Of a DNA stretch of 41,804 bases, positions 1,013-39,356 are shown one piece after another. Below the pieces are notes generated by a model. The model made no database searches. It had not been told where the DNA came from and saw nothing but the letters and a program-made list of their open reading frames with translations. Positions within the stretch are counted from its first letter, which is position 1; each line of letters begins with the position of its first letter. Location: NCBI GenBank assembly GCA_045649645.1, contig JAZRQH010000049.1, positions 1 to 41,804 on the forward strand, in the 5' to 3' direction. The translations under genes were made by a program, and so were the position numbers. The stretch is from Eubacteriales bacterium. GTDB taxonomy: Bacteria; Bacillota; Clostridia; Oscillospirales; CAG-272.

Positions 1013-1555
1013 TTAATAGATATAGGTTATATCATTTGTGTTCAGCTTCTTTTTCAGTATAAAAAAGTAGTTGAGCTTTAATACCCATATATTATCATCA
1101 GCTTTTCTGGCTACAAGAAACCTGTCGTGCTTGAAGGAACGGGATATCACAAGCACTGTATACCCCTCGTTCCGAAAGCATACCGTCATATTATTAAGAT
1201 ATGCCCGACGGCCAAAATATCCTTTTTTTGCGTCTATGACAACAATCTTTCTGTCGGTTATATCCTCGGATATGAGCTTTGTGTATTTTTTGTACTGAGA
1301 GGTGCTTAAGATCACTGTTATACCGAAGATAACAAGGGCAACAGGTAAAAGCACCAGTAATACCGAAAAGACCACCAGCAGCACAGCGCTCGTCTCAATG
1401 GCGGCGATAATATATGACGCATAGCGTATAAGCCTTGAAATAAGGAAATACCGCCGTGTGTACCGTACGGCACGCATAGCGATATTCCATAATCCGTTTT
1501 CCTTTAACTGTCCCAAGCGGTAGGACAGAAGGGAAGTATATTTATCATAACCCAC
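1013..1555 (-). CDS. Hypothetical membrane protein (two predicted TM segments), candidate sporulation gene
   Basis: 183-aa ORF with a long hydrophobic stretch. In-frame GTG at 1555 lies 5 nt after GCGGTGA (SD-like); the track start at 1564 falls inside that SD. Confidence 0.6.
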   Translation of the reverse strand: MGYDKYTSLLSYRLGQLKENGLWNIAMRAVRYTRRYFLISRLIRYASYIIAAIETSAVLLVVFSVLLVLLPVALVIFGITVILSTSQYKKYTKLISEDITDRKIVVIDAKKGYFGRRAYLNNMTVCFRNEGYTVLVISRSFKHDRFLVARKADDNIWVLKLNYFFILKKKLNTNDITYIY

Positions 1556-1571
1556 ATATATCACCGCTTAT

Positions 1572-1600
1572 AGTATATTACTCTGTAAGCAGTTTTATGT
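1572..1600 (-). promoter_or_regulatory. Putative sigma-E-like promoter
   Basis: Minus strand ACATA-16 nt-AATATACT, overlapping the queG stop codon. Confidence 0.35.
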
Positions 1601-2360
1601 TACGTTCGATGGTTTTTCTTTTGCGCCAGCCAAAGGCACGGGACTTTAGCTCCTCATCTGACATACTGTCAAGTATCTCGGGGGTAAGCTCGAATATCCT
1701 GTCCTGCCAAAAGAAGTTAATCGGAGTTTTTGCGACGTTTTTGTTATACGGACAAACATTCTGACAGATATCGCATCCCCAGGCGGTGTGATGCTGTCTC
1801 ATAAGCGAAATTGTCTTATCGTCAAGCTCACCCTTCTGCTGGGTAAGAGCCGAAAGACAGTTATCCCTTGAGGGGCAAGCCTCGGTACATTTACCGCAGT
1901 GATGGCAGAATGATATTTCTTTTGCTTTTTCTGCGGTCACCATATCGGTAAATATACCGCCGATAAATACGTATGAGCCGTATTTTTCGTTTATAAGACG
2001 GTAGTTGTCTCCGATGATACCCAGTCCTGCCATAGCTGCAGCAGAGGTCTCGGCTATAGGCGAATGATCCGCCATACCGCGGAAGCGTCTGTCAGGCTGC
2101 ATATACTGCAGGCTCTGTACCATTCTGTCGGTAAGGTCTGCCATATATACGTGGTAATCACGTGGCACGGCATAGAGAGATATATTTCTCTCACGGCGAT
2201 CCTCGGTATAATAGGGCACAAGAAAGAGAATAACACTTTTAGCCCAGACACAGGTCCGCTCGTAAAGAGATTGATTTATTATTTTACAGCTTTCTATAGG
2301 CAGTACGCCTATATATTCGATATTTTCGTTTCTGAAAACGTATTTACATAATTCAAGCAT
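1578..2360 (-). CDS. queG: Epoxyqueuosine reductase (QueG)-like 4Fe-4S/cobalamin protein
   Basis: YAVPRDYH, AGLGIIGDN, CHHCGKCTEACP and WGCDICQNVCP motifs. ATG at 2360 is preceded by GGGTGA. Confidence 0.75.
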   Translation of the reverse strand: MLELCKYVFRNENIEYIGVLPIESCKIINQSLYERTCVWAKSVILFLVPYYTEDRRERNISLYAVPRDYHVYMADLTDRMVQSLQYMQPDRRFRGMADHSPIAETSAAAMAGLGIIGDNYRLINEKYGSYVFIGGIFTDMVTAEKAKEISFCHHCGKCTEACPSRDNCLSALTQQKGELDDKTISLMRQHHTAWGCDICQNVCPYNKNVAKTPINFFWQDRIFELTPEILDSMSDEELKSRAFGWRKRKTIERNIKLLTE

Positions 2361-2376
2361 ATTATCACCCAAAAGC

Positions 2377-2405
2377 ATTTTAACACATATAAAGAGATTT
2401 TTCAA
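2377..2405 (-). promoter_or_regulatory. Sigma-A promoter for queG
   Basis: TTGAAA-17-TAAAAT with TG extension on the minus strand. Confidence 0.6.
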
Positions 2406-2419
2406 TAAGGAGAATTTAA

Positions 2420-4399: not shown

Positions 4400-4425
4400 T
4401 AAAAACAAAATTATGAGGTTTTAGT

Positions 4426-16594: not shown

Positions 16595-17159
16595 GAATGA
16601 AAATATACTTGAGATAGAGCGTACCATAGAGGCTCTGCTCTTTGCTACGGGCGATCCCATTACATACGAAAAGATAGGCTCGCTTCTGGAGCTTACTCCC
16701 GGTCAGGTAAAGAGCATTACCCTTGATATGAAGGAGAATTATACCGACAGAGGTATTCAGCTTCTTTGCTACGATACAGCCTGCCAGCTCTGTACCAAGG
16801 AAAAATATGAGGATGTGATCAAGGATTGCCTCGGTATCAAAAAGAACGGAGCCCTCTCCAAATCAAGCCTTGAGACCCTTGCGATCATTGCCTACAATCA
16901 GCCTGTAACGAGGGCCTACGTTGAGGAGGTCAGAGGCGTTGACTCCGCCTATGCCTTCGGTATTCTCTTACAGAGAGAGCTTATCGAGATCAAGGGAAGA
17001 CTTGACGTGCCCGGCAGACCTAACCTTTACGGCACGACAAAGGACTTTTTGAGGATATTCGGTCTTTCTTCGATAAACGAGCTTCCTAAGGTAGAGGTTC
17101 TTGCCCCTGCCGAGGATCAGGCACAGACAGAGCCTGCCGAGGAAAAAAACGAGGACTAA
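16584..17159 (+). CDS. scpB: Segregation and condensation protein B
   Basis: IEALLF, LETLAIIAYNQPVTR and PGRPNLYGTT..FL..FGL motifs. Confidence 0.95.
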   Translation: MSNKNENILEIERTIEALLFATGDPITYEKIGSLLELTPGQVKSITLDMKENYTDRGIQLLCYDTACQLCTKEKYEDVIKDCLGIKKNGALSKSSLETLAIIAYNQPVTRAYVEEVRGVDSAYAFGILLQRELIEIKGRLDVPGRPNLYGTTKDFLRIFGLSSINELPKVEVLAPAEDQAQTEPAEEKNED

Positions 17160-17205
17160 ACCTCTGTATATAAGACGATAATCTAAGGAAAGGGAGGCGG
17201 TATCT

Positions 17206-17820
17206 ACGGTTTGGTTATGGATAATTGCGGCAGTTGTTGCCCTGATACTGCTTGCACTTTTCAGTAACGTAAGGATATATATCGTATACGATAAGGAGCT
17301 TTACTCCTATTACCGTGTTTTCTGGCTGTACAAGGATCAGCTCTATCCCGAAAAGGGTCCCGAAAAATATATATCCGCAAAAAAGCTAAAGAGCAGAGGA
17401 AGGAAACTTCACAAAAAGAGGACCAAGCGTCTGACCGACAAAAAGGATACTATCGGTGAGGTGTTTACCGACGTTAAGGATATGGTCACCGAGCTTCTGG
17501 AACTAATATATATCATCTTAAAGAAATTTCTCGGAAAAGTGGATATCAAGGTGCGTAAGCTGGATATAACCGTATCCACCGAGGATGCGGCGGCAACCGC
17601 TCTTACTTATGCTCTGGTGTGCGACTCTCTCAATATTCTTGTAGATATGCTCAGAAACACCGACCGCATCAGCTGTAGCTTTAATAAACTTGAGTGCAGA
17701 TGCGACTACACCGAAACGCAGTTCAAGGCTGAGGTGGACGTTCTTATCAAGATAAGAATAATCCAGGTCATCCGCGTACTGTTTGATTCAATGATGGAAC
17801 AAATTAAAACGACTATATAG
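17206..17820 (+). CDS. YtfI/DUF2953-family membrane protein, apparent ACG start (204 aa; the track reports only 17461-17820)
   Basis: Frame is open from the TAA at 17179-17181. GGGAGG SD at 17192-17197 lies 8 nt before ACG, followed by VWLWIIAAVVALILLALF (TM), a basic linker and a DAAATAL motif. Located upstream of ytfJ. Confidence 0.75.
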   Translation, partial: TVWLWIIAAVVALILLALFSNVRIYIVYDKELYSYYRVFWLYKDQLYPEKGPEKYISAKKLKSRGRKLHKKRTKRLTDKKDTIGEVFTDVKDMVTELLELIYIILKKFLGKVDIKVRKLDITVSTEDAAATALTYALVCDSLNILVDMLRNTDRISCSFNKLECRCDYTETQFKAEVDVLIKIRIIQVIRVLFDSMMEQIKTTI

Positions 17821-17836
17821 ATCGGAGGAAAATAAA

Positions 17837-18286
17837 ATGGAAAACAAGATCAGCGACATTATCAGAACATCCCTTGAAAACGTCAAGGACGTCGTTGACA
17901 GCAATACCGTTATCGGTGAGGCTATCCCCACCACAAACGGTACTGTCATTATCCCTGTTTCCAAGGTTTCTATCGGTATCGCCACAGGCGGTCTCGATTA
18001 CAAGGGCAAGCGTGCGAAGGAACAGCCTGTCAAGACTAACAATTTCGGCGGTGCAGGCGGTACCGGTGTTACCGTTAAGCCTGTAGCGTTCCTTGTAGTT
18101 AAGCCTGACGGCGGTGTTGATCTGCTTAACGTAGACCATCCCACAGAGGGCTCGGGCGACGATACGGTTGAGCTCATCGCTTCCTTTATCCGTAAGTCTC
18201 CCGACCTTATTGCCAAGCTTAAGGCATTCTTCAAGAACGACCTTGGCTTTGCACCCAAGGGTGACGGAGAAAATTCGGCAGAATAA
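17837..18286 (+). CDS. ytfJ: Sporulation protein YtfJ/GerW
   Basis: NTVIGEAI, IIPVSKVSIG..GG and FGGAGGTGVTVKPVAFLVV motifs. Confidence 0.9.
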   Translation: MENKISDIIRTSLENVKDVVDSNTVIGEAIPTTNGTVIIPVSKVSIGIATGGLDYKGKRAKEQPVKTNNFGGAGGTGVTVKPVAFLVVKPDGGVDLLNVDHPTEGSGDDTVELIASFIRKSPDLIAKLKAFFKNDLGFAPKGDGENSAE

Positions 18287-18334
18287 GCGGACACGCCCCG
18301 TCATATAGTGTAGTAAAAACTGTATGCGGGGTGT
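18281..18334 (+). promoter_or_regulatory. Sigma-E promoter plus SD-sequestering hairpin for dacB
   Basis: GAATA-16-CATATAGT. A 16-bp stem (18293-18309 with 18319-18334) covers the SD GGGGTG. Confidence 0.65.
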
Positions 18335-18337
18335 ACT

Positions 18338-19465
18338 ATGAAGCTAAAAGCAATAATTTCTATAATACTGATCCTTTCTCTGACCTATTTTTGTGTGGGT
18401 GCATCGGGTGTCGATTACGGCAAAGCGATGGAAACGATTTCACTGTCGGGTACGTCAGCCGAGAGCTGTGTGCTCTACTGTCTTGACACAGACGAGGTGG
18501 TGTATGCCTCTGATGAGCATAAGCGGCTTCCCATGGCAAGCACGACCAAGATAATGACGGCGATAGTAGTACTGGAAAACGCGGACACAGAGGACGTTAT
18601 AACCGTCCACAAGGATGCCGTGGGTATCGAGGGCTCCTCTGCTTATCTTATGAAGGGGGAGAGGGTCAGCATCAAGGACCTGCTTTATGCTTTGATGCTT
18701 GAGAGCGCTAACGATGCGGCAACCGCTCTTGCGATAGCAGTTGGTGAGGACATAGAGAGCTTTGTTTCTTTGATGAACTCTAAGGCCTGCGAGATAGGTA
18801 TGAAGGATACAAGTTTTACCAATCCCCACGGCCTTGATGATGAGGCACACTATTCTACGGCATACGATATGGCTCTGCTGTGTGATTATGCAATGGACAA
18901 TGCTGATTTTGCGGATATTGTGTCAAGCTATAGATACGAGACCGACAGCCGTCTCTTTGTAAACCACAACAGGCTTCTTAAGACCTGCGAGGGTGTTATC
19001 GGCGGCAAGACAGGCTTTACCAAGCGCAGCGGCAGATGCCTTGTGTCGGTTGCAAGGCGTAACTCAGTTACCATGTGCGCTGTCACCTTAAACGACCCAA
19101 ACGACTGGAAGGATCATAAGGCGCTTTATGACGCAGGTTTTGACGGTTACCAGACGCTTAGCTTAAAGGGTGGGGAATACACTATTCCTGTTATAAACGG
19201 CAATCGTGATACGGTTACCGTTACTGCTCCCGATAGAGAGCTTGTATGCAAAAAGGAAAATGCAGACTCTGTCAGCGTAGCCGTTTGTCACGACAGATTT
19301 ATCTACTCACCCGTAAAAAAGGGGGAAACGGTAGGTTATCTCGTATATTCGGCAGACGGCGAGGAGATAGCGAGAACAGAGCTTAAAGCTGCAGAGGATA
19401 TATCTAAAATAAAAAAGAAGACTTTTATAGAAAAAATAATTTCAGGATTGATATGGAACAGATAA
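18338..19465 (+). CDS. dacB: D-alanyl-D-alanine carboxypeptidase (peptidase S11, DacB-type sporulation PBP)
   Basis: Signal peptide; PMASTTK (SxxK), SAN (SxN) and GKTG; scpAB...dacB...rluB synteny. Confidence 0.85.
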   Translation: MKLKAIISIILILSLTYFCVGASGVDYGKAMETISLSGTSAESCVLYCLDTDEVVYASDEHKRLPMASTTKIMTAIVVLENADTEDVITVHKDAVGIEGSSAYLMKGERVSIKDLLYALMLESANDAATALAIAVGEDIESFVSLMNSKACEIGMKDTSFTNPHGLDDEAHYSTAYDMALLCDYAMDNADFADIVSSYRYETDSRLFVNHNRLLKTCEGVIGGKTGFTKRSGRCLVSVARRNSVTMCAVTLNDPNDWKDHKALYDAGFDGYQTLSLKGGEYTIPVINGNRDTVTVTAPDRELVCKKENADSVSVAVCHDRFIYSPVKKGETVGYLVYSADGEEIARTELKAAEDISKIKKKTFIEKIISGLIWNR

Positions 19466-20175
19466 GATTACAGAAGTTTGTTGCCGAATGCGGTGTAATG
19501 AGCCGCCGTGCAGCAGAAAAGGAAATAGAGGCAGGAAACATAACCGTAAACGGTGAAGCTGTTGAGGTGGGCAGAGTTATCGATCCCGCCAGAGACAAGG
19601 TAAGATTTAAGGGAAGACCGGTTATGCGTAAGCGTAACAGCCACAAGGTTTACCTTATGCTCAACAAGCCCCGCGGATACGTTACCACTATGTCTGACGA
19701 TAAGGACAGAAAGTGCGTTGCATCCCTTGTCAAGGACGTGGGGGAGCGCGTATACCCCGTTGGCAGACTTGACTACGAGAGCGAGGGTATGCTTATAATG
19801 ACCAACGACGGAGATCTTGCAAACAAGCTTATGCACCCCGCTCATCACGTTCCCAAGACCTATAACGTAAGGGTTGAGGGCAGTGTGACCAAGGAACAGC
19901 TTGCGCTGCTTAGCTCTGAGATGGTAATAGATGACTATAAGATAAAGCCTGTTGAATGTAAGATACTGCGCTCCAAGAACGGATATACCGTTCTTGAGAT
20001 GGTGCTCCACGAGGGCAGAAACAGACAGATAAGAAAAATGTGCGAGCAGGCAGGCCTTGAGATATCCTACCTTCGCAGGATCGCCATAGGCACTATCGAG
20101 CTTGGAGATCTGCGCGCAGGACAGTGGCGTTGGCTTACAAAGGAACAGATAAAGTATTTAAAGGAGTATAAATAA
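19453..20175 (+). CDS. rluB: 23S rRNA pseudouridine synthase RluB/RsuA family
   Basis: S4 domain RLQKFVAECGVMSRR; NKPRG, PVGRLD and EGRNRQIRKM motifs. Confidence 0.88.
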   Translation: MEQIRLQKFVAECGVMSRRAAEKEIEAGNITVNGEAVEVGRVIDPARDKVRFKGRPVMRKRNSHKVYLMLNKPRGYVTTMSDDKDRKCVASLVKDVGERVYPVGRLDYESEGMLIMTNDGDLANKLMHPAHHVPKTYNVRVEGSVTKEQLALLSSEMVIDDYKIKPVECKILRSKNGYTVLEMVLHEGRNRQIRKMCEQAGLEISYLRRIAIGTIELGDLRAGQWRWLTKEQIKYLKEYK

Positions 20176-20567
20176 TGCTGGAGGTATATCCTATTCAAGA
20201 TAAGGCAGAGCAGGCTGAGCTTTGCGAAAAGGCAGGGATAGTATACGATGCTGATAAGCTTGCTTACAAGGGGATCGTCGGCGGAGAGCTTATAGGCGTT
20301 GCGCAGTTCGGCATCAAGGGCAAGTGCGGCTATATCTACGATCTTGAAAATATCAAGGGTATTGATAACGAGGAGGTCCTCTTCGTTATGGGCAGAGCCG
20401 CTCTTAACTTTATCGATCTGTGCGGTATTACCGACAACTATTTTGAAGCAAGAGACGAGGGCAGAGAAACCCTTGTTTCCCGTATCGGCTTCAAAAAGAA
20501 CGGGTCGGATAAATGGTATATGAATACACAGGGGTTCTTTACCGAGCCCTGTAAGTGTGAGGGCTGA
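20175..20567 (+). CDS. Hypothetical protein, possibly degenerate GNAT-like fold
   Basis: 130 aa; AAGGAG SD; overlaps the rluB stop; native codon usage. Confidence 0.7.
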   Translation: MLEVYPIQDKAEQAELCEKAGIVYDADKLAYKGIVGGELIGVAQFGIKGKCGYIYDLENIKGIDNEEVLFVMGRAALNFIDLCGITDNYFEARDEGRETLVSRIGFKKNGSDKWYMNTQGFFTEPCKCEG

Positions 20568-20585
20568 TCTATCAGCCCTCATTTT
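20558..20585 (+). terminator. Intrinsic terminator ending the lon...rluB unit
   Basis: TGAGGGCTGAT/ATCAGCCCTCA followed by TTTT. Confidence 0.7.
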
Positions 20586-20642
20586 GTACATAGTGCCAAA
20601 AAATGGCAGGAATATTTGTTACAAATTTTTACCAGTTTTCTA

Positions 20643-20671
20643 TTGCAATATTTCCCATAATATGGTAATAT
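20643..20671 (+). promoter_or_regulatory. Sigma-A promoter of spo0A
   Basis: TTGCAA-17-TAATAT with TG extension. Confidence 0.55.
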
Positions 20672-20709
20672 ATAGGAGTAATAAATAAAAAATAACGGAG
20701 CGTGTAAAA

Positions 20710-21489
20710 ATGGAGCATAATGTTAAGATACTTGTCGCAGATGAAAACAGGGAGTTCAGACGAAGCTGTAGGGATAACCTTATGGGCTTCGGTTACCGTA
20801 TGGTAGAGGAGGCCTCTGACGGTGAGGAGGCTATGTTTCAGATAGAGAAGCATCATCCCGACATCGTTATTATGGACGTGTGGATGGGTAAGGTGGAGAC
20901 CCTGAACGTTATCCGCAACTGCGCCAGACTTTCCTACGGGGAGGACAATCCGCCTTCATTTATAATTACTTCTATAGTCAATAATCCCAATATGTTCAAC
21001 GAGCTGTCCGATGCGGGAGCACAGTACTGTGTGCTCAAGCCTCTGGACTACACCACCCTTCACGAGAGAATAAGAAGAATATACGAAACAAGAGTCAAGG
21101 ACGGTCGATATGCCTCAGCTATGCCCGAACCGTGCGAGGACCTTGAAGCACAGGTAACAAAGGTGATACATCAGATAGGCGTACCTGCGCATATCAAGGG
21201 TTATCAGTATCTCAGAACAGCTATCCTGATGACCATAGTTGACAGCGAGATGATAAACGCTGTTACAAAGATACTCTATCCCTCTGTGGCAAAGAAATAT
21301 CAGACCACGTCGTCCCGTGTTGAGCGCGCAATCCGTCACGCTATCGAGGTAGCTTGGGATCGCGGAGATATAGACGTGCTTAACTCCTATTTCGGTTATA
21401 CGATACATAACAACAGAGGTAAGCCTACCAACAGCGAGTTTATTGCAATGATCGCCGATAATCTCAGACTTACAAACAAGCTATCATAA
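20710..21489 (+). CDS. spo0A: Sporulation master regulator Spo0A
   Basis: Receiver domain plus C-terminal [32 protein letters not shown] and [13 protein letters not shown]. Confidence 0.97.
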
Positions 21490-21515
21490 ATGCACCCGTT
21501 TGGGTGCATTTTTTT
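21488..21515 (+). terminator. Intrinsic terminator after spo0A
   Basis: AAATGCACCC-GTTT-GGGTGCATTT followed by a T-run. Confidence 0.85.
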
Positions 21516-21535
21516 ATATTTCCTCGCATATCTAT
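21506..21535 (+). promoter_or_regulatory. Putative sigma-E promoter of the spoIIIA operon
   Basis: GCATT-16-CATATCTAT; spoIIIA is sigma-E dependent in studied spore formers. Confidence 0.5.
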
Positions 21536-21550
21536 GTTGTGGGTGATGTA

Positions 21551-22408
21551 GTGAACAAGCTTGACGGATATCTGTCTACCGATATTTTAACCGAGTTAAA
21601 GGGTCACGGTAGAATTAACGAAATCAGACTTAAGCGGAATTCTCCTGTGGTTATTAAAAAGGATGACCGATATATCAGACTTAACACAGTAACCGACTCG
21701 GACAGCTTTGACGTGATTCTGGACAAGTTACTTGAGCATTCTTATCATTCAAAGTTATCCGGTCTTATTGAGGGGTATATAGCCCTTGGGGAGGGTTACC
21801 GTGTGGGGGTTGCGGGACAGGCGGTGTTGCGAAACGGGACGGTCGCTAACTTAAGTGAAATCGGCTCCGTTAATATACGTATTCCTCATATAATAAGAGG
21901 TATCTGCCAGCCTGTGATCCAATATCTGAGTTTAACGAATTTCAGAGCCGGCGTGCTTATATATTCTCCTCCGGGGGTAGGTAAGACAACTCTTTTAAGG
22001 GATCTTATACTGACTCTTGCCACAGCTCCGAACTTTAAGCGTTTATCGGTCATAGATTCACGTAACGAGCTCTACCACCCCTGTATGTCAGATCTGCCCA
22101 TGCTTGATATCTATACGGGATATCCTAAGCATAAGGGTATAGAGCAGGCTATACGTACTATGGCACCCGATATTGTTATATGTGACGAGATAGGAAACGA
22201 CGAGGAGACCCAGGCTCTGCTCGCCAACCAAAGCGCAGGTGTACCGATAATAGCCAGCGCACACGGAGAAAGCTATTCTTCACTTATAAACAGAAGCAAT
22301 ATACAGAGGATGGACGAGCGTGGAGTGTTTGGGTGTTATATCGGTATCAAGCGCAGATCCTCCGGTGAAAAATACGATTTTGAGTTCACGGAGTCACAGA
22401 ATGTATAG
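21551..22408 (+). CDS. spoIIIAA: Stage III sporulation ATPase AA
   Basis: EIRL, GYRVGVAG, SPPGVGKTTLLRD, IDSRNE, CDEIG and SAHG. GTG start follows GGGTGA. Confidence 0.92.
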   Translation: MNKLDGYLSTDILTELKGHGRINEIRLKRNSPVVIKKDDRYIRLNTVTDSDSFDVILDKLLEHSYHSKLSGLIEGYIALGEGYRVGVAGQAVLRNGTVANLSEIGSVNIRIPHIIRGICQPVIQYLSLTNFRAGVLIYSPPGVGKTTLLRDLILTLATAPNFKRLSVIDSRNELYHPCMSDLPMLDIYTGYPKHKGIEQAIRTMAPDIVICDEIGNDEETQALLANQSAGVPIIASAHGESYSSLINRSNIQRMDERGVFGCYIGIKRRSSGEKYDFEFTESQNV

Positions 22409-22853
22409 ATATACTGCGATCTTTATTATATTGCTCATATCATTGTATACAGCACTGTGCATAACGCGTTACGGCAGAGAAAAGATAAGCTTTCATATTG
22501 CTGTGATAGACTTTATAACCTACGTAAAGCAGCAGATAACCTTCTTCTGTACACCTACAAATAAGCTGATAGAGGAATATCACGACACGAAGCTGCGTGA
22601 AAGCGGAATTTTTTCAAGTGACGGTATTGAAGCAAACGTTTATCTTGATGCGCGTGGTAAAAAACTCTTGAAGGATTTTTTTGCAAGGCTTGGCAAAAGC
22701 AGTGCGGAGGATCAGATAGCAAGCTGTGATTATACAATAGAAGGATTGAACGCTCTGCTGACTGAATACAGATCGGATATACCAAAGAAATATAAGGTCT
22801 ATTCAACGCTGACTCTGATAGCGGGATCAATGCTGTTAATTCTTTTGATATAG
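22401..22853 (+). CDS. spoIIIAB: Stage III sporulation protein AB
   Basis: Position, N- and C-terminal TM segments, LGKSSAEDQ motif. ATG at 22401 follows GGAG. Confidence 0.8.
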   Translation: MYRYTAIFIILLISLYTALCITRYGREKISFHIAVIDFITYVKQQITFFCTPTNKLIEEYHDTKLRESGIFSSDGIEANVYLDARGKKLLKDFFARLGKSSAEDQIASCDYTIEGLNALLTEYRSDIPKKYKVYSTLTLIAGSMLLILLI

Positions 22854-22862
22854 GGGTGAAGG

Positions 22863-23057
22863 ATGGATATAACCGTAATAATGAAGATAGCGGGTATCGG
22901 TTTTCTGGTGAGCGTATCCTATATCCTGCTCAACAGAGCAGGCAGGGATGAGATGGCGATGCTCGTATCGGTTGCAGGGGTGATAATAGTGCTCGTTATG
23001 ATAATATCTCAGCTGGGCGACCTTCTGGAAAGCGTTAAGAGCACCTTCGGTCTATGA
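22863..23057 (+). CDS. spoIIIAC: Stage III sporulation protein AC
   Basis: MDITVIMKIAGIG...AGRDE...F.L; 64 aa. Confidence 0.92.
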   Translation: MDITVIMKIAGIGFLVSVSYILLNRAGRDEMAMLVSVAGVIIVLVMIISQLGDLLESVKSTFGL

Positions 23058-23437
23058 TGCTGAAGGCAATAGGAATAGCGGTGGTGACTGTTATTGCTTG
23101 CTCAGTATTGAAGAGCACCCAGCCGAGGCTGACACCCTTTATTATTTTTTCAGCGGGGCTTTGCGTACTGATGCTTTGCTTTGCGGATATTGAAGAAATA
23201 TTCGGGTATTTTTACTCTCTGTGTGATTCAAACAGATACGGGGATTATTTCAAAGTGATGCTCAAGGGACTTGGCGTCTCGTATCTTGCAAGCGTAGGAG
23301 CGGATCTCTGCCGTGACAGCGGCGAGGAACAGCTTGCGGGACGTATCGAGCTTGCCGCCAAGGCAGAGCTGCTTATACTGGCATTTCCGCTTATCAAGGG
23401 TATAATTGAGCTCAGCGAAGGTATACTGACGTCATGA
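23054..23437 (+). CDS. spoIIIAD: Stage III sporulation protein AD
   Basis: LKGLGVSYL...CRDSGE..LAGRIELAAK motif. Confidence 0.9.
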   Translation: MMLKAIGIAVVTVIACSVLKSTQPRLTPFIIFSAGLCVLMLCFADIEEIFGYFYSLCDSNRYGDYFKVMLKGLGVSYLASVGADLCRDSGEEQLAGRIELAAKAELLILAFPLIKGIIELSEGILTS

Positions 23438-24504
23438 TAGGAAGGATAGTTTGTATAGCGGTCGTGTTGATTCTGTTCTGTACTCCGATCATGGCTTATG
23501 ACGCTTCGGAATATATAACGGATGAAATGGAGCAAAATCTTCCCGACGGTATTGTTGTGGATGATCGTATCAGCTATAGCACGTTGCTTGAAGAGATAAG
23601 TAAGGCTTTGGGTGATACGCTGCCACAGGTCGTAAAGGATACAGCTGTCTTGCTTGCGGTTATAATACTCTCAGCCTTATTCGGCACCCTTGCAGGTTCT
23701 GTAAGGACGGCAGGTGTACAACGCTGTCTTGGGTATCTTTCCACAGCTTGCATTGCTATGGCGGTGTACAATACGCTTTCGTCGGTATGGACGGAGATGT
23801 CCGAGCTTCTATCCCGTATAAATACCTTTATGACCACCCTTACCCCTGTGACCACCCTTTTGTACTCCATGGGCGGAAACCTGACCACGGCGGCACTTAA
23901 CGATACTGCGATGGGGATTATCCTGACAGTCTTTGAGACCGTTTGCTTTCACTGTATCAAGCCGATGCTGCAGGTATGCTTCGGCTTCAGTATCATAAGC
24001 GCTCTTTCATCGGGAATCGATCTTAGGGCCTTGGGCAGCTTTGTACGCCGTACCTATACAACCGTGCTTATGTTTGTAATGTCGACGATGATATGTATTC
24101 TCACTCTTCAGAATATGCTGACAAGGCCAAAGGACTCCCTTGGCATACGTACCGTCAAGTTTGCGGCGGCAAATTCTATCCCAATCGTCGGATCTGCATT
24201 AGGGGAGGCTGCGGCAACGGTAGGTGTAGGTATGTCCGCGATCCGTGGCAACTTTGGAGTTCTTGCGATACTTGCGCTTGTGATGATGATACTTCCGCCG
24301 ATCATATCAATGTGGCTTAATAAGATATCCTTTTCTCTTATGTCGGCGGTGTGTTCGGTCTTTGGGCTGACTAAGGAGCAAGAAATAATTTCAGGTGGCG
24401 CGGAACTTATGAACTTTGCGTTGGCGATAACTCTGTCCTCGGCAGTAATGTTTATCATAAGTATATATCTGTTCGCCACGGCACAGGCAGTGGTGGGAGG
24501 CTGA
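23434..24504 (+). CDS. spoIIIAE: Stage III sporulation protein AE
   Basis: Signal peptide, multi-TM, KFAAANSIPIVG motif, operon position. Confidence 0.88.
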   Translation: MIGRIVCIAVVLILFCTPIMAYDASEYITDEMEQNLPDGIVVDDRISYSTLLEEISKALGDTLPQVVKDTAVLLAVIILSALFGTLAGSVRTAGVQRCLGYLSTACIAMAVYNTLSSVWTEMSELLSRINTFMTTLTPVTTLLYSMGGNLTTAALNDTAMGIILTVFETVCFHCIKPMLQVCFGFSIISALSSGIDLRALGSFVRRTYTTVLMFVMSTMICILTLQNMLTRPKDSLGIRTVKFAAANSIPIVGSALGEAAATVGVGMSAIRGNFGVLAILALVMMILPPIISMWLNKISFSLMSAVCSVFGLTKEQEIISGGAELMNFALAITLSSAVMFIISIYLFATAQAVVGG

Positions 24505-24505
24505 T

Positions 24506-24991
24506 ATGGGCGGTATACGTGAATTTGTATACTCACTTCTTATAGTATCTGTATCAGGCTCTGTTATAACCATGTTTGCCCCCGAAAACCCGCGGGTGTC
24601 AAAATATCTTAATTTCCTTATAAGCCTTGTTATAACCTCGGTATTACTACTTCCGTTGTGTAATGCAGTAGTTAAGCTCCCGCAGATTAAGACGGGTGAC
24701 ATCGATTTTGCCGAAGGACAGGCATCCATGAGTACGTATACCGATACGGTGTTGGAGCAAGCCTGCGAGAATATAGAAAGGGAGCTCAAGGATACTCTTT
24801 ATCAACGCTTTGACGTAGAGCCTGCAGACGTAAAGGTAATAAGCAACGGGGTGCCCGAAGCTCTTGAGATTAAAGAGATAGAGGTGATCTATGACATTGA
24901 AAACGGCCTGTTGTATTCGGATACGGTAAACTATATCAGGAGTATTTTTGATAAAGACTGTGAGGTGAGGGTGACCTGTGAAGATATTTAA
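24506..24991 (+). CDS. spoIIIAF: Stage III sporulation protein AF
   Basis: Two N-terminal TMs with P....KY; operon position. Confidence 0.8.
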   Translation: MGGIREFVYSLLIVSVSGSVITMFAPENPRVSKYLNFLISLVITSVLLLPLCNAVVKLPQIKTGDIDFAEGQASMSTYTDTVLEQACENIERELKDTLYQRFDVEPADVKVISNGVPEALEIKEIEVIYDIENGLLYSDTVNYIRSIFDKDCEVRVTCEDI

Positions 24992-25415
24992 CCGTAAGAG
25001 CCTTATACTGATAGCCGTGGGCGTGCTCTGCGCGGTAATACTTCTGTTCACAAGCGAAAAAACAAAGGTATCTACCGAGGCTAAAGCAAGCTACGAGGAT
25101 ATGATAGAGCATAAGCTCACCGAGCTTATATCCGGACTTGGCGGTGTCAGTAACGTAAAGGTAATGGTGGTACAGGACTGTGGGGTAGAATACGTATATG
25201 CCGTTGATACCGAATCGTCGGCAGACAGAGAAAACAGTAAATATTACAGCGCAGGAGATGAAGAAGCTCTGTTGCTCAAGGAGATATCTCCTGTAATAAA
25301 GGGTGTCGCGGTGGTGTGTGACAGTGAAGATCCTGACAGAGCGGAGGCTAAGATAACCGAGCTTATAGCAAGCGTGTTTGATATTCCGACGACCGATATA
25401 TTTGTAGATGCATAG
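24978..25415 (+). CDS. spoIIIAG: Stage III sporulation protein AG
   Basis: GVSNVKVMV and PVIKGVAVVC ring-building motif; GTG start. Confidence 0.85.
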   Translation: MKIFNRKSLILIAVGVLCAVILLFTSEKTKVSTEAKASYEDMIEHKLTELISGLGGVSNVKVMVVQDCGVEYVYAVDTESSADRENSKYYSAGDEEALLLKEISPVIKGVAVVCDSEDPDRAEAKITELIASVFDIPTTDIFVDA

Positions 25416-25470
25416 TAATAGATAAGAAACTTACCGAATATAAATATATAAAAAACAGTGAGGTAATGCT

Positions 25471-26043
25471 ATGAACATAGGAAAAACAAAAAATCTACTT
25501 ACCGACGGAGCCAAAAGGATAAAAAAGGGCTTTTCAAGAGAAAACCTGAAGCGGAACATAATCGTCCTTGCATCTCTGGGTATAATCGGAGGAGCAGTAT
25601 ATCTGAACTGGAGCTACTTCAAGCCGGGTGACGGGGTCTCGACGGCGTCCGAAAACAAAAGCGAAAGTGAGCTTGTAGATATCGAGAACGCCGAATCTTA
25701 CTTTGCTATGACGGAGGTATCAAGGCAGAGAACAAGGGACGAGGCTCTTGAGGTGTTACAGACTATAGTTGACAACGAAGCAACACTCGAGGAGGATCGC
25801 AATGCAGCGCTTGCGGCGATAAACGTTATAGCCGCCAATATCCAGTCGGAGGGAAATATAGAATCTCTGGTTGTTTCCAAGGGTTTTGAGGATTGTGTTG
25901 CAGTGATCAGTGAGGGTAACGCTACGGTCGTGGTCAAGAGCGACGGTCTGCTTGAAAACGAGATCACACAGATACGGGAGATAGTATATACCGAGGCGGG
26001 TATACTTCCTGAAAACTTAAAAATAATCGAAAAAGCGGCATAA
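25471..26043 (+). CDS. spoIIIAH: Stage III sporulation protein AH
   Basis: AVYLNW, YF...R...R and E..IE.L..SKGFEDCV motifs. Confidence 0.9.
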   Translation: MNIGKTKNLLTDGAKRIKKGFSRENLKRNIIVLASLGIIGGAVYLNWSYFKPGDGVSTASENKSESELVDIENAESYFAMTEVSRQRTRDEALEVLQTIVDNEATLEEDRNAALAAINVIAANIQSEGNIESLVVSKGFEDCVAVISEGNATVVVKSDGLLENEITQIREIVYTEAGILPENLKIIEKAA

Positions 26044-26046
26044 CAA

Positions 26047-26160
26047 GGGGCAAGTTGCCGCGAACCCCAAAGCTCGACAAGCTCGCTTCGGGAACCCCGG
26101 CGTCCCACCCAAACTGCGCTTTGTGGCACAAATAACGTCTTTTGTCCATCACACGCCACA
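26047..26160 (-). repeat. GC-rich two-hairpin element (REP/MITE-like repeat or unannotated structured RNA)
   Basis: Long rod hairpin at 26048-26110 that pairs best on the minus strand through G-U pairs, plus a second stem at 26122-26160. Confidence 0.45.
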
Positions 26161-26179
26161 TCGTAATTTCCTATACATT

Positions 26180-26215
26180 AAAAAAGTGCTATCCGTACGG
26201 ATAGCACTTTAAAAA
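26180..26215 (-). terminator. Intrinsic terminator of glyQS (possibly bidirectional)
   Basis: AAAGTGCTATCCG-TA-CGGATAGCACTTT with a T6 run on the minus strand. Confidence 0.85.
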
Positions 26216-26223
26216 TATTTATC

Positions 26224-27615
26224 TTAGTATACCATCTTCTTAGCAAGGTAAGCCTCAAGATCCTCGATCTTGATTCTTTCCTGCTCCATGGTGTCACGGT
26301 CACGAACTGTTACGCAGCCGTCTTCCTTGGACTCGAAGTCGTAAGTGATACAGTAGGGAGTACCGATCTCGTCCTCACGGCGGTATCTCTTACCGATCGA
26401 ACCTGTCTCGTCGAAGTCAACGTTGTAGTTCTTTGCAAGCATTGCGTATACTTCCTGAGCCTCAGCAGAAAGCTTCTTTGAGAGAGGAAGAACCGCAGCC
26501 TTGAAGGGAGCAATGAAGGGATGGAAGTGCATAACGACACGTGTATCGTTTTCGCCAACCTGCTCCTCGTCGTATGCCTCGCAGAGGAGTGCAAGCAGAG
26601 CTCTGTCTGCACCGAGGGAGGGCTCGATAACGTAGGGTACGTACTTTTCGTTGGTTTCGGGATCGAAGTATTCAAGAGCTTCGCCGCTGTGTTCAGCGTG
26701 CTGGGAGAGGTCGTAGTCTGTTCTGTCTGCTATACCCCAGAGCTCGCCCCAGCCGAAGGGGAAGAGGTACTCAAAGTCGGTTGTAGCCTTGGAGTAGAAG
26801 CAGAGCTCCTCGGGAGAATGGTCACGGAGTCTGAGGTTTTCCTTAGCGATGCCGAGACCGTAGAGGAAGTTTTCGCAGTAATCCTTCCAGTACTTGAACC
26901 ACTCAAGGTCGGTGCCGGGCTTGCAGAAGAACTCAAGCTCCATCTGCTCGAACTCTCTGGTTCTGAAGATAAAGTTACCGGGTGTGATCTCGTTACGGAA
27001 GGACTTACCGATCTGACCTACACCGAAGGGGATCTTCTTACGGGTAGTACGCTGTACGTTCTTGAAGTTTACAAAGATACCCTGTGCAGTTTCGGGTCTC
27101 AGATACAGCTCGGAGGTAGAATCCTCGGTTACGCCCTGGTATGTCTTGAACATAAGGTTGAACTTACGGATAGAGGTAAAGTCCTTGCTGCCGCAGTCGG
27201 GACAAACGATACCGTTCTCGGCGATGAACTCAGCCATCTTGTCGTTGGTCCAGCCGTTGGGGTTGATGTCGAGATTGTTTTCGGCAATGTAGTCCTCGAT
27301 CAGCTTATCTGCGCGGTGACGTGTCTTGCATGCCTTACAGTCCATAAGGGGATCGGAAAATCCGCCTACGTGACCGGATGCAACCCAGGTCTCGGGATTC
27401 ATGATGATAGCACAGTCAAGACCTACGTTGTAGGGAGATTCCTGTACGAACTTTTTCCACCATGCCTTCTTTACGTTGTTCTTGAGCTCAACGCCGAGAG
27501 GACCGTAGTCCCAGGAGTTGGCAAGACCGCCGTATATTTCTGAGCCGCTGTATATAAAGCCTCTGGTCTTACATAAAGCAACTATCTTGTCCATAGTTTT
27601 CTGTCTGTTGTCCAT
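26224..27615 (-). CDS. glyQS: Glycine--tRNA ligase (homodimeric alpha2 type)
   Basis: YGG...[43 protein letters not shown] and [12 protein letters not shown] motifs. Confidence 0.97.
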
Positions 27616-28685: not shown

Positions 28686-28760
28686 GCCTGCATAGTTAAA
28701 TGGATATAACAAACCCCTCCTAAGGGTTAGTTGTGGGTTCGATTCCCGCTGCGGGTGCCA
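28686..28760 (+). tRNA. tRNA-Arg (CCU)
   Basis: Cloverleaf: GCCTGCA/TGCGGGT acceptor, GTTA/TAAC D-stem, AACCC-CTCCTAA-GGGTT anticodon arm, GTGGG-TTCGATT-CCCGC T-arm, encoded CCA. Confidence 0.96.
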
Positions 28761-36673: not shown

Positions 36674-36677
36674 AATT

Positions 36678-36706: not shown

Positions 36707-38249
36707 CCATGGTATGTTCATTTCTGTTGATAATGTAGTAGTTTTCTTTATCAAAATTAAAGCTGTAAATATATAAATTATTACCTCTGCAACCCTTGAA
36801 TTTTCCGTCATCTGAGTTTATAATATCCCTTAAGTGCTCGGTGTACAGTCCCTGAAGCTCCTTAGGGGGATTTTTGTTTTCGTGTATCAGGGTGTCAAGG
36901 GCAAGCTTGCCCAATGCTGTTTCATCTTTGCGTAGTATATCTACAAGCATCATTCTGCATTCGTGCTGGGAGCACTTTTCAAGTCCCTTTATTTGCATAT
37001 CACAAAGCGCGGAAAAGAACCTAAAGGGTGACTTAACTGTCCGAAGCACGTATTCCATAGTGTTTTCGAATCGGCCGCTTGAATAAAACCTGTCTATCGT
37101 TGCGGCTATGCGCTTGAGACGGTATAGCTCGTTGTAGGACATATAATTATTTGAAAGCACCGTGTAGGGTGAGTCGCTTTCGTATATATATCCGTGTTCA
37201 TCCGAGCCGTTTCTTATATACGAACCCCTAAGCATTTTAAGAAAGCCTAACTGCAACTTGTGACAGCAGGATATAGCACTGTCAAAGGATTTTGCAAAGC
37301 TGTCGATATCCTCGTAGGGAAGGCCTGCGATCAGATCGGCATGGATATGAATGTTGCCGTATGACTTTAATCTTGTCAGATTTTCTATTACTTGTGAACT
37401 GTCTGTTTTTCTGTTGATGGCGACAAGTGTCTTTGGGTTGGTGCTCTGTATACCTGCTTCGAACTGGATCTTACCCGACGGCATTTTTGACAGTATCTCA
37501 TAGCATTCCTCATCCAGCAGATCCGCCGCTATCTCAAAGTGGTAGTTGAGCGTGTATTCGTCAGAGCACAGTGCTTTCCATATCTTCTTTGCACGTGCAA
37601 TGTCGTAGTTGAAGGTGCGATCGATGAATTTTATTATTCTCGGTTTGCTTTCCAGCTTCTCAAATTGCTTTAACTCTGCAAGTGTCTGCTCTGCGCTCTT
37701 TGCCCTTATACCTTGGGACAGAGAGGATAGGCAGTAACTGCATCGGTAAGGACAACCTCTTACTGATTCGTAATAAAGTATGTCACCCACCGCAGGATAT
37801 ACGTCGTAGAGTATACCCATCTCTGTGAAGTCATTGCGGCATAAACCGTCTACGATCCTGTATTCTTCGGGAGAACTGCATATATCAGCTATGACTGCTT
37901 CACCTTCGCTGCGTATAAGTATATCAACGTAGGGGTGCTCTGCAAGGAACTCTTCGTTTTCAAAGCTGACCTCGGGTCCACCGAAGATTATGTAGGAGTC
38001 GGGCATGAGCTTTTTCAGGTCTCTTGCATATGACAACATCTCGTTTATATTCCATATATAGACCGAAAATGCGTAAATATGAGATTCTGTGCGTACAAGC
38101 TCGTGCAAAACTCTTGCTTTTTTGTCCTTTAGGGTGTATTCTAATATATGGGTGTCAAAACCCCTCTTATCAAGTGCGGATGCAAGATATCTTACCGCAA
38201 GGTTGGTATGTGTAAATGATGAATTTAACGCAAACAGAGTAACTTTCAA
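36687..38249 (-). CDS. B12-binding radical SAM protein (DUF4080-type)
   Basis: HTNLAVRYL, SVYIWN, GGPEVS, RGCPYRCSYC, DRTFN and DLIAGLP. TTG start follows AGGAG. Confidence 0.88.
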   Translation of the reverse strand: MKVTLFALNSSFTHTNLAVRYLASALDKRGFDTHILEYTLKDKKARVLHELVRTESHIYAFSVYIWNINEMLSYARDLKKLMPDSYIIFGGPEVSFENEEFLAEHPYVDILIRSEGEAVIADICSSPEEYRIVDGLCRNDFTEMGILYDVYPAVGDILYYESVRGCPYRCSYCLSSLSQGIRAKSAEQTLAELKQFEKLESKPRIIKFIDRTFNYDIARAKKIWKALCSDEYTLNYHFEIAADLLDEECYEILSKMPSGKIQFEAGIQSTNPKTLVAINRKTDSSQVIENLTRLKSYGNIHIHADLIAGLPYEDIDSFAKSFDSAISCCHKLQLGFLKMLRGSYIRNGSDEHGYIYESDSPYTVLSNNYMSYNELYRLKRIAATIDRFYSSGRFENTMEYVLRTVKSPFRFFSALCDMQIKGLEKCSQHECRMMLVDILRKDETALGKLALDTLIHENKNPPKELQGLYTEHLRDIINSDDGKFKGCRGNNLYIYSFNFDKENYYIINRNEHTMEKRCIK

Positions 38250-38276
38250 AATATTTCTCCTAAGCTTAGTTGATCT

Positions 38277-38305
38277 ATTTTACCATACCAAAACAATTTT
38301 ATCAA
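38277..38305 (-). promoter_or_regulatory. Sigma-A promoter of the radical SAM gene
   Basis: TTGATA-17-TAAAAT with TG extension. Confidence 0.6.
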
Positions 38306-39312
38306 GTGAATATTTCCTTTATAAGCTTTTCCTGATATTCTTCCTTAAGTGAAAAATCCATAGCTGATATGTATATCTTCTCAAGTGCAAAATGCTCATT
38401 TTCTATTTTTGCAAGCAGGGAATAAGCGTCTGACAGTAGCTGATCTTTTCTGAGTTCTGCGTTGCCGTCGAGGGTGATGCTCTTTGATATAAAGTCATCC
38501 AGATCTATCTCTTCTCCGCAGTCGGTGTTAATGCAGAAGAGCACCTTATCCAAAGGAAGATATAACATATTTACTTTGTTTGTGTCGAGCGCATCATAGG
38601 ATACCGTGATCTCACTGTCGCAGAGTGTTTTAAGTATATTACCGAGGAAGATATGTCCTATGCCGTAGCTATCCTTCAGGTTATATATGACCTCCGCTTC
38701 ATCCTTGTACGGCTCAAATCTGTGATATCCCTTCATGGTGATGCCGTCGATCAGGCGTACTGATCTTCTGCCTCTGCGCTGGGGGATCACGTCGGTATAA
38801 GATCTTGTAAGGATATTAAGCGCCTGAATATCTGTAATCTCCGTTAAAGCACGATGGTGTACTCGGTCAAGAGTAAGAGCGGCGTTGAGATATGAATATA
38901 CGTCCTTATACAGACACATCTTTAGGTTAGCCGATTCTGTGATATGCTCCTGTGAGGACTTAAGTATATTTTTGTTCCAGAACCTGCCGAGATCGATTAT
39001 CTCATCGGTTACTCCCGGATACTTTGGGTCGGCTGTATGAGGAGCGGTACCGTCACTTATCCCCACCGACAATTCCTTTATTATCACACCGTCAAGGGAA
39101 TACGGATCACTTGAGCAGTAGAATCTTTCTACGCTCATACCCTTACTTTGCGCTTCCTTTGCTACGGCCTTCATAAGTGAGCTTTTGCCTGTTCCCGGAC
39201 CCCCCTTGATGATGTAATGCTTGTTTAAGCCCTTGAATATATCCCCATAAAAATTTATAAATCCGCGACCTGAGTTAGCGGATGCAAAGAAATTCAATTC
39301 CGAATTACTCAT
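38302..39312 (-). CDS. PRK06851-family P-loop ATPase (uncharacterised, spore-former associated)
   Basis: FASANSGRGF, IKGGPGTGKS, CSSDPYSLDG and DGTAPH. ATG at 39312 follows GAGGTG. Confidence 0.8.
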   Translation of the reverse strand: MSNSELNFFASANSGRGFINFYGDIFKGLNKHYIIKGGPGTGKSSLMKAVAKEAQSKGMSVERFYCSSDPYSLDGVIIKELSVGISDGTAPHTADPKYPGVTDEIIDLGRFWNKNILKSSQEHITESANLKMCLYKDVYSYLNAALTLDRVHHRALTEITDIQALNILTRSYTDVIPQRRGRRSVRLIDGITMKGYHRFEPYKDEAEVIYNLKDSYGIGHIFLGNILKTLCDSEITVSYDALDTNKVNMLYLPLDKVLFCINTDCGEEIDLDDFISKSITLDGNAELRKDQLLSDAYSLLAKIENEHFALEKIYISAMDFSLKEEYQEKLIKEIFT

Positions 39313-39356
39313 AATATCACCTCTAAGGTATATTATGCTAAAATACAATTTTTGTT
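39310..39356 (-). promoter_or_regulatory. Putative sigma-K promoter plus hairpin over SD/start
   Basis: AC-16-CATAATATA; inverted repeat CATAATAT-ACCT-tag-AGGT-g-ATATTATG. Confidence 0.45.

Follow-up and report, generated by a model that had tools for sequence, protein, structure and literature searches.

Promoter-like elements nested in Shine-Dalgarno-masking hairpins at dacB and other sporulation genes of a gut clostridial genome

The stretch of DNA analyzed here (hereafter the window; 41,804 nucleotides, nt) is contig C49, JAZRQH010000049.1, of a 2.08-Mb Eubacteriales genome that comprises 235 contigs at 46% G+C. Gene identities in the window come from Pfam and NCBIfam searches. Among these genes is dacB, which follows ytfJ and whose Shine-Dalgarno (SD) region lies in one arm of a predicted hairpin, with a promoter-like element reaching into the other. 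An earlier note on this DNA had proposed that such an arrangement recurs at up to five loci of the window, namely dacB, spoIIIAA, weakly spoIIIAH, a PRK06851-family ATPase gene and a hypothetical gene (hyp1555), and that it silences RNA entering from upstream while sparing the transcript of a mother-cell-type promoter. We take ytfJ to be a forespore-type gene and dacB to be a mother-cell-type gene. The features at dacB are as follows.

17837-18286, + strand: ytfJ, followed by dacB at 18338-19465
18281..18309, + strand: promoter-like element of dacB, with a -35 GAATAAG (18281-18287), a 16-nt spacer and a -10 CATATAGT (18302-18309)
18293..18334, + strand: SD-masking hairpin of dacB, whose start codon ATG lies at 18338

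The -35 overlaps the ytfJ stop codon TAA (18284-18286), and the ATA-N16-CATATAGT spacing was confirmed by a match to the motif ATA-N16-CATA. This element is tentatively assigned to sigma-E by the Bacillus subtilis consensus; the sigma-factor consensus sequences and gene-to-compartment assignments used below are likewise those of B. subtilis, except the assignments of spoVT and dacF. The 5' arm of the hairpin consists of ACGCCCCG and CATATAGT (18293-18300 and 18302-18309), that is, of the promoter spacer plus the -10; the loop spans 18310-18318, and the 3' arm, ACTGTATG and CGGGGTGT (18319-18334), covers the SD. When the region -45..+5 was folded and compared with 300 dinucleotide shuffles, a test applied to all five loci of the window, dacB gave -24.5 kcal/mol (z -5.66), with none of the 300 shuffles as low. 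The genome background was built with a custom simple gene caller, on which all gene calls and start codons rest and whose 1,802 predicted genes make up 88.5% of the genome. Of these, 1,689 have 100 nt of upstream sequence, and for them we computed the opening energy, defined as the energy required to free positions -15..+3; over -45..+5 its median is 3.3, its 95th percentile 9.4 and its 99th percentile 14.4 kcal/mol. With 22.9 kcal/mol, dacB has a rank of 0.001 in this set and possesses the strongest ribosome-site-masking hairpin of approximately 1,700 genes.

Orthologues, up to 30 loci per gene, were drawn from 60 relatives of the same genus, family and order, which are not independent of each other, and their starts were placed by tblastn and SD score. 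Opening energy was here computed over -70..+5, for which the 1,689 genes have a median of 3.68 and a 95th percentile of 10.04. Each locus was judged both against the genome's 95th percentile and against 30-40 shuffles of its own upstream part with the SD kept, a comparison that, when calibrated on 150 genes picked at random from the genome, was passed by 15 of them (at 0.05 or lower). Seven control genes carried through the same pipeline reached the percentile in 2 of 133 loci and beat shuffles in 5 of 133 (3.8%); taken singly, the two counts were 0/12 and 1/12 for the amidohydrolase gene, 0/27 and 0/27 for ytfJ, 2/14 and 2/14 for orf17461, 0/6 and 0/6 for spo0A, 0/14 and 0/14 for the queG-like gene, 0/30 and 1/30 for murA, and 0/30 and 1/30 for lon. 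For dacB, both counts are 16 of 26, with a median opening energy of 11.7. Nine of the ten same-genus dacB orthologues retain GAATAA-N15-CATATAGT, including those in which it lies outside the ytfJ stop, and the tenth (L013) has CATACTTT. The arms co-vary between orthologues, as in the spacer/SD-arm pairs CCCCG/CGGGG, CACTCCCGTC/GACGGGGAGTG, GCCTGTC/GACAGGT and AACCCGTC/GACGGGTT. At least seven spacer positions display two or more pair types in a table anchored on the -10, which uses each sequence's own fold and is thereby biased towards pairing. In distant genera the stem is rebuilt from unrelated sequence, such as ACCCTCATAT/ATATGAGGGT in L023. Of the 30 dacB loci retrieved across the family and order (the window and L004-L032), 27 keep the gene order ytfJ-dacB. 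A masking stem at dacB, beyond chance and conserved in relatives, is therefore strongly supported.

Two further loci of the window, both on the reverse strand, have stems with moderate support.

1578-2360, - strand: queG-like gene, followed by the hypothetical membrane protein gene hyp1555 (GTG 1555)
1553..1600, - strand: hairpin before hyp1555, whose start codon GTG occupies 1555-1553
39312, - strand: start codon ATG of the PRK06851-family ATPase gene, divergent from an amidohydrolase gene (ATG 39374)
39310..39356, - strand: leader of the PRK06851-family gene (NCBIfam match PRK06851), with a promoter-like element AC-N16-CATAATATA at about 39356-39329

At hyp1555, which is not in the called gene set and has no CATA -10, an outer stem joins 1600-1596 with 1558-1554, and in the main stem the final queG-like codons (1593-1586) pair with 1570-1563 in the SD region, leaving the queG-like stop codon TAA (1580-1578) in the loop. 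The fold has -12.7 kcal/mol (z -3.15). Six of 17 orthologous loci reach the 95th percentile and seven of 17 beat shuffles, six loci being near-identical; one orthologue covaries (TCTTGAA/TTCAAGG) and two are without the stem. The 50-nt block from the end of the queG-like gene to the start of hyp1555 (1551-1600, - strand) is invariant in the six closest genomes (L094-L099), and this identity persists despite differing flanking coding sequence, the proteins being 73-94% identical. At the PRK06851-family gene, 39337-39326 pair with 39322-39310 around a 3-nt loop, an arrangement that places the -10 opposite the SD and the start codon (ATG, 39312-39310) in the stem; the 16-nt spacing of AC-N16-CATAATATA was confirmed. 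This stem has -9.4 kcal/mol (z -2.89) and an opening energy of 9.0 (rank 0.059). It is invariant in six same-genus loci, where the loop alone varies, and across the orthologues 6/30 reach the percentile and 10/30 beat shuffles. An Rfam scan of the window returned nothing at the stems; its sole match was a tRNA gene, 28686-28757 (+), which sits between a LytR-family gene and a polysaccharide biosynthesis gene.

Comparable stems recur outside the window. Among the 45 most masked genes of the genome, 42 were annotated (C6:1106, C193:3001 and C158:21229 were left unannotated), and ten of these bear sporulation or germination family names: CwlD, DacB, SigG, a second SigF/G-like open reading frame, SpoVT, SpoIIGA, YlmC/YmxH and three whose start codons are doubtful, namely a GerXA-like gene, YtvI and a sigK/E gene. 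Behind yajC lies another of the most masked genes, which encodes a DUF3792/TIGR04086 membrane protein. Orthologues at or above the 95th percentile, and those that beat shuffles, number 7/10 and 9/10 for DUF3792 (10 of 30 loci passed the tblastn filter), 19/30 and 16/30 for sigG, 17/30 and 15/30 for cwlD, and 11/30 and 14/30 for spoVT. For spoIVA both counts are 6/30, the stem being sporadic and, in some relatives, dramatic (23.4 kcal/mol in L182). The enrichment over shuffles and housekeeping controls that the earlier note had called for was found at dacB and a number of further sporulation genes, as was compensatory change among orthologues. Both cwlD and DUF3792 have a conserved -10, [C/A]ATATA, that follows an ATA by 16 nt and is immediately preceded by the anti-SD arm, and the arm sequences differ among orthologues with pairing kept; motifs of the form ATA-N16-[C/A]ATA are retained within the stems of dacB, DUF3792 and cwlD alike. 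In sigG and spoVT, the arm occupies the spacer between GTATAA and CAATACTT or GATACTA. For spoIIGA (C233:1069), the promoter is of the form TTGACA-N21-TATAAT and its -35 overlaps the anti-SD arm. What recurs, then, are hairpins in excess of shuffles and controls, conserved with changed arms and with promoter motifs inside them.

A set of eight sporulation transcription-unit heads, picked by family before any energies were seen (SpoIIID, SpoIIP, two YabP/YqfC, SpoVB-like, sigK/E, SpoVT and SpoIVB), has a median opening energy of 7.85, versus 3.94 for 926 heads (one-sided Mann-Whitney U test, p 0.0007). Excluded from the set as operon-internal were a SpoIID-like gene, a further SpoVB-like gene (b) and sigE, with opening energies of 2.9, 2.1 and 1.7; YlbJ, the start of which is uncertain, was not counted, and SpoIIM, BofA and SpoVK were not found by family searches of the genome. 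Among the heads of sporulation transcription units, the design recurs in graded strength under different sigma factors, without being present at all of them.

Two oddities of the gene set deserve mention in their own right. The frame at C159:222-2267 (+), 681 amino acids long, consists of a SigF/SigG-like N-terminal part (residues 2-226) and, from 230 to 680, a segment that corresponds to the last two-thirds of a glycyl-radical enzyme; it is probably an assembly mis-join or a frameshift rather than a real fusion. On the short contigs C23 and C116 lie two ATP-grasp genes of the carbamoyl-phosphate-synthase-like type (C23:883-1905 and C116:987-2009) that are nearly identical, as are the stems upstream of them; they represent a recent duplication or an assembly duplicate.

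From these layouts it is, on balance, probable that dacB, and less strongly hyp1555 and the PRK06851-family gene, has its own sporulation-type promoter inside a hairpin that masks the SD on read-through RNA only, and that the same design exists at cwlD, sigG, spoVT and DUF3792 and, more weakly or sporadically, at spoIVA, yabP/yqfC-family genes, dpaA and spoIIGA. The 5' arm would be supplied by the promoter spacer, the -10 or both, and the 3' arm by the SD region. RNA reading through from upstream, at dacB from ytfI-ytfJ, would hold both arms and have its ribosome-binding site sequestered, whereas RNA begun at the internal promoter would start in the loop, without the 5' arm, and be translatable. 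The start sites, the read-through RNA and the translational effect are what we infer here. A transcript begun at the conserved -35 and -10 inside the stem would lack the 5' arm: at dacB, DUF3792 and cwlD, the 5' arm contains conserved -35/-10-like blocks spaced 16 nt apart, and the assumed starts fall in the loop. With a start assumed about 7 nt past the -10, the computed opening energies of the long and short isoforms are 19.8 and 3.4 kcal/mol for dacB, 21.0 and 4.9 for cwlD, 17.1 and 5.8 for sigG, 15.0 and 2.4 for the DUF3792 gene, and 14.4 and 2.6 for spoVT. The gap between anti-SD arm and SD has per-family medians of 20-32 nt (dacB, DUF3792, spoVT, PRK06851, spoIVA, sigG and cwlD), wide enough for a -10 with its discriminator and for a short leader.

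Several observations weigh against this interpretation and are given in this and the following paragraphs, together with the other explanations on which they bear. The first concerns the two spoIIIA loci of the window.

20710-21489, + strand: spo0A, followed by the spoIIIA operon, with spoIIIAA from GTG 21551 and spoIIIAH at 25471-26043
21488..21511, + strand: intrinsic terminator of spo0A, a 10-bp (base pair) stem with a T-run, directly upstream of spoIIIAA
21506..21555, + strand: leader of spoIIIAA (GTG 21551), with a -10-like CATATCTA at 21527-21534 and a weak stem that is within chance
25426..25475, + strand: leader of spoIIIAH (ATG 25471), with no significant SD masking

Neither stem is significant. 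The fold at spoIIIAA has -9.9 kcal/mol (z -1.55; shuffle fraction 0.087), with an opening energy of 11.0 (rank 0.026), and that at spoIIIAH has -2.8 kcal/mol (z -0.57), with an opening energy of 3.6 (rank 0.45). Their orthologues behave like controls: 5/29 at or above the 95th percentile and 3/29 that beat shuffles for spoIIIAA, 1/30 and 2/30 for spoIIIAH. Judged by orthologue counts against controls, then, the five hairpins proposed at the outset divide into dacB, strongly supported, PRK06851 and hyp1555, moderately supported, and spoIIIAA and spoIIIAH, unsupported, the last two lying within their shuffles. The claim that all five share one 16-nt promoter spacing survives for dacB and PRK06851; spoIIIAA and spoIIIAH matched none of the promoter-motif regular expressions used for that spacing, and hyp1555 lacks the CATA -10. 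Such results invite the view that the stems are products of chance or base composition, as a -10 CATA is complementary to the TATG of a start codon and G-rich SDs pair with C/T-rich spacers. Several PRK06851 and spoIVA stems are indeed mere CATAT/ATATG pairings, and SD-kept shuffles equal some loci, for instance L051 of the PRK06851 orthologue set (10.7 vs 10.6). For dacB, cwlD, sigG, spoVT and DUF3792, however, shuffles are beaten in 47-90% of loci, compared with 3.8% of the 133 controls and 10% of the 150 random genes. Chance is refuted for these five genes and stands for spoIIIAA and spoIIIAH; as an account of the stems in general it is very unlikely.

The comparative evidence for pairing is also uneven. 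RNAalifold, applied to MAFFT alignments, recovered only 12 pairs for dacB and no consensus pairs for spoVT or DUF3792, a low yield that we attribute to arms that shift register. For spoVT, a hand-set structure leaves 75.9% of cells paired, versus 35-50% when slid, but covariation is modest, with 16 double-change cells versus 9.2 in shuffles (2/500). The spoVT repeat, almost perfectly Watson-Crick, moreover folds no better on the sense strand (+1.3 kcal/mol, 13/30). This would suit inverted repeats that act as DNA, as operators for a dimeric regulator over the promoter (such as SpoVT autoregulation, or SpoIIID), rather than as RNA, and the bracketing of the -10 by the repeats points the same way, as does a Fic-family gene (C5:9280) with three operator-like inverted-repeat copies around a sigma-A promoter. 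At dacB the sense strand folds better than the antisense by 4.6 kcal/mol, and does so in 25 of 26 loci, versus 1.46 in 300 random genes; at DUF3792 the advantage is 4.3 kcal/mol (9/10). This strong G-U bias, which bears out for the dacB family the earlier assertion that G-U pairs favor the coding strand, argues for an RNA structure at dacB rather than a DNA palindrome. The orthologue arms, furthermore, differ widely while complementarity is kept, and hence there is no conserved half-site, and the SD is always one of the arms. An operator function is thus quite unlikely to explain the stems. As to the Fic-family gene itself (C5:9280-10326, + strand), the 75 nt upstream contain TTGACT-N17-TATAAT bracketed by three alternating copies of ATATGCAGAAA / TTTCTGCATAT, an arrangement that resembles an operator array and extends over the SD as well.

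A different function for the stems would be to serve the upstream gene, as a 3'-end stabilizer or a factor-dependent terminator without a U-tract, with a nearby G-rich SD falling incidentally in the 3' arm. In most cases a co-directional gene does lie close by (51 nt at dacB, 52 at DUF3792, 63 at cwlD and 110 at sigG), and many other top SD-masking stems of the genome are ordinary terminators whose 3' arm includes the next SD (C68:598, C203:17103, C63:290, C97:11754 and C172:30729). The trade-off between masking and upstream terminators that would be expected of SD masking on read-through RNA was not seen, the pooled median opening energy of loci behind a terminator (8.09) being no different from that of the others (8.74; p 0.97), a further point against such masking. 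At PRK06851 and spoIIGA, on the other hand, the upstream genes are divergent, and among dacB orthologues the intergenic length ranges from 38 to 162 nt while the 3' arm always tracks the SD. A search for terminator-like sites in 17000-26500 called none at the dacB stem, nor anywhere in the 51 nt between the end of ytfJ and dacB, although it did call the spo0A terminator. The bases that follow the dacB stem are ACTATGAAG, with no T-run, as the earlier note had remarked of these stems, and for want of a T-run we rejected an intrinsic terminator at dacB. A role for the stems chiefly in the upstream gene is, on this evidence, rather unlikely.

The short leaders implied at some loci also count against promoters nested in masking hairpins. 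At PRK06851, hyp1555, spoIIIAA and spoIIGA the assumed -10 leaves a leader of about 10-11 nt (about 11 nt at PRK06851), which in the first three would put the SD at the extreme 5' end, and the promoter placement, or the model, may be wrong at these four genes. The first three of these leaders would fit a stem that belongs to the functional sporulation mRNA itself, begun upstream of the 5' arm, where it damps or times translation or couples it to the upstream frame. The layout of hyp1555, with the last queG-like codons as 5' arm and their stop codon in the loop, is that of classical translational coupling, and in B. subtilis a small hairpin at the ribosome-binding site in the own leader of sigG damps translation 2-4-fold, according to PMC5942855. 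In contrast, dacB, DUF3792, cwlD, spoVT and sigG have conserved -35/-10 blocks of fixed spacing in the 5' arm or loop, and the dacB arm in L010-L012 begins about 25 nt past the ytfJ stop, beyond the reach of a terminating ribosome. A stem acting within the sporulation mRNA is accordingly improbable as a general explanation, and we retain the reading in which the promoter lies within a hairpin that masks the SD on read-through RNA.

How far that design extends is a separate matter. The earlier note had envisaged it as mother-cell-specific and regulon-wide, and neither description holds. Forespore-type spoVT and sigG, as well as spoIIGA, of the Spo0A/sigma-A type, have it too, and it is therefore not confined to the mother cell. 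On a crude classification, genes in which a sigE/sigK-like motif lies 8-45 nt from the start show no significant shift in masking when compared with all other genes over -45..+5 (Mann-Whitney U test, p 0.12-0.38): p is 0.12 for the ATA-N16-CATA class (n=13), 0.25 for the CATAnnnT class (n=100), and 0.20 for the class with a sigE-type or sigK-type motif (n=53), or 0.38 without the loci first proposed. Over -70..+5 the last class is weakly shifted (p 0.02, or 0.056 without those loci). These motifs are noisy, and most matches are probably not promoters; a looser -10 expression, [CA]ATA, was dropped, as it mostly caught sigma-A TATAAT boxes. The earlier note had also noticed no such stems at sigma-A genes, which is true of the controls in the window; elsewhere in the genome, the oxidoreductase gene C218:878 and spoIIGA C233:1069 have sigma-A-type promoters with an anti-SD arm.

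Similar stems at non-sporulation genes, namely the L-lactate dehydrogenase gene (C214:2864), the oxidoreductase gene just mentioned and the Fic-family gene C5:9280, also weigh against a sporulation-specific role. The dehydrogenase gene, ldh (C214:2864-3829, + strand; locus L001), is a housekeeping gene that follows rnfD and has a stem of 17.5 kcal/mol over its SD and start, among the strongest of the genome; the 5' arm holds a CATACCAT box 16 nt past an ATA, which may be a mother-cell promoter for ldh or may be due to chance. The oxidoreductase gene (C218:878-2155, - strand) has a canonical TTGACA-N17-TATAAT promoter, in which the spacer CCCACAAAA pairs with the gene's own SD region TTTTGTGAGG, the same design on a sigma-A promoter.

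A broader proposal, which we regard as possible but doubtful, is that the hairpins constitute an order-wide layer of the sporulation program across sigma factors: Spo0A/sigma-A (spoIIGA), sigF/G (sigG and spoVT), sigE (dacB, cwlD, DUF3792, yabP/yqfC and spoIVA) and sigK (dpaA and PRK06851). Such a layer would evolve by fast compensatory change and would keep expression true to compartment and time wherever transcription of a vegetative or forespore gene runs on into a mother-cell gene, as it might from ytfJ into dacB.

Spore formation depends on gene expression in the right cell at the right time, and to our knowledge its control has been studied almost wholly through transcription and the sigma factors. 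Should hairpins within the promoters themselves routinely render read-through RNA untranslatable, the sporulation program would possess a second, post-transcriptional layer of fidelity, one that is cheap to evolve and invisible to transcriptomics, because the presence of an mRNA would not mean that its protein is made. The isoform rule of the B. subtilis sigma-B genes would then extend to the sporulation cascade and to gut clostridia, and the position of sporulation genes directly behind unrelated genes without terminators would be explained. An anti-SD arm directly 5' of a -10 could also serve as a signature by which to locate sporulation promoters in uncultured sporeformers.

Pairing between an upstream segment and the ribosome-binding site is well known from the IS10 transposase gene, where it causes fold-back inhibition of externally initiated transcripts; IS10 is a mobile element that protects itself from outside transcription, and it shares this pairing with the stems described here. 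In phage T4, as the review PMC3014915 recounts, the genes e, soc, 49 and I-TevI have a late promoter that lies within a hairpin sequestering the region of translation initiation. The inhibitory helix forms in early transcripts that read through; late transcripts, whose promoter lies in the DNA of the 5' strand, lack it and are translated well, and the helix is conserved in related phages. The T4 genes follow a phage temporal program with gp55 late promoters, unlike the bacterial developmental program considered here.

Sigma-54 promoters offer an insulator-like parallel. The bioRxiv preprint 10.1101/086108 of Levy et al. describes CT-rich anti-SD insulators in the non-transcribed part of the promoter that silence the downstream gene on read-through RNA only, and proposes that they protect developmental and envelope genes. 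Those elements are CT-rich, 3-5 nt long and within 25 bp of the SD, whereas the stems here are of 6-16 bp, have a gap of 20-32 nt and accompany promoters of the sigma-70 family. Since the motifs are of the ATA-N16-CATA and GTATA-N17-CAATACT types, the present cases fall outside the sigma-54 insulators and resemble them only in their presumed working. In Clostridioides difficile, spoVT has been assigned to sigF/sigG and dacF to sigG in the start-site paper PMC3789822, the main text of which does not contain the word 'hairpin'. Our literature searches for earlier accounts of such stems, whether at dacB, cwlD or spoVT individually or as something that recurs across clostridial sporulation genes, turned up nothing but a paper on sigG.

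That paper (Mearls et al. 2018, PMC5942855) proposes that a hairpin of at least 20 pairs at B. subtilis sigG (spoIIIG) blocks translation of spoIIG read-through RNA and cannot form in the PsigG transcript. As in B. subtilis, sigG in this genome and in its relatives has an anti-SD arm in the promoter spacer; unlike in B. subtilis, it is not downstream of sigE, which is on C233, and the design extends beyond sigG to dacB, cwlD, spoVT and other genes. Another close precedent is that of the B. subtilis sigma-B genes (McCormick, Lalanne et al., RNA 2021, PMC8208050). There the long isoform, from an upstream promoter, sequesters the SD in an extended stem, and an alternative-sigma start site in the loop or downstream arm yields a short isoform that is translatable. 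Start sites, translation efficiency and probing with DMS (dimethyl sulfate) are all experimental in that study, the pairing is kept in other Bacillus despite sequence change, and its authors state that further sigma factors might use the scheme as well. The present stems are likewise predicted to sequester the SD on the long RNA, with pairing kept in relatives; they differ in their sporulation-type promoters (sigE/K, sigF/G and Spo0A-type sigma-A), in their host, represented by a gut clostridial metagenome-assembled genome, and in being known from sequence alone. The interpretation first offered for this window is thus partly supported and is the best available, although the design is neither regulon-wide nor mother-cell-specific. 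The cases in the window and the genome can probably be added to an established kind of translational control that selects between isoforms, the class of T4 gene e, B. subtilis sigG and the sigma-B genes, as new members of it.

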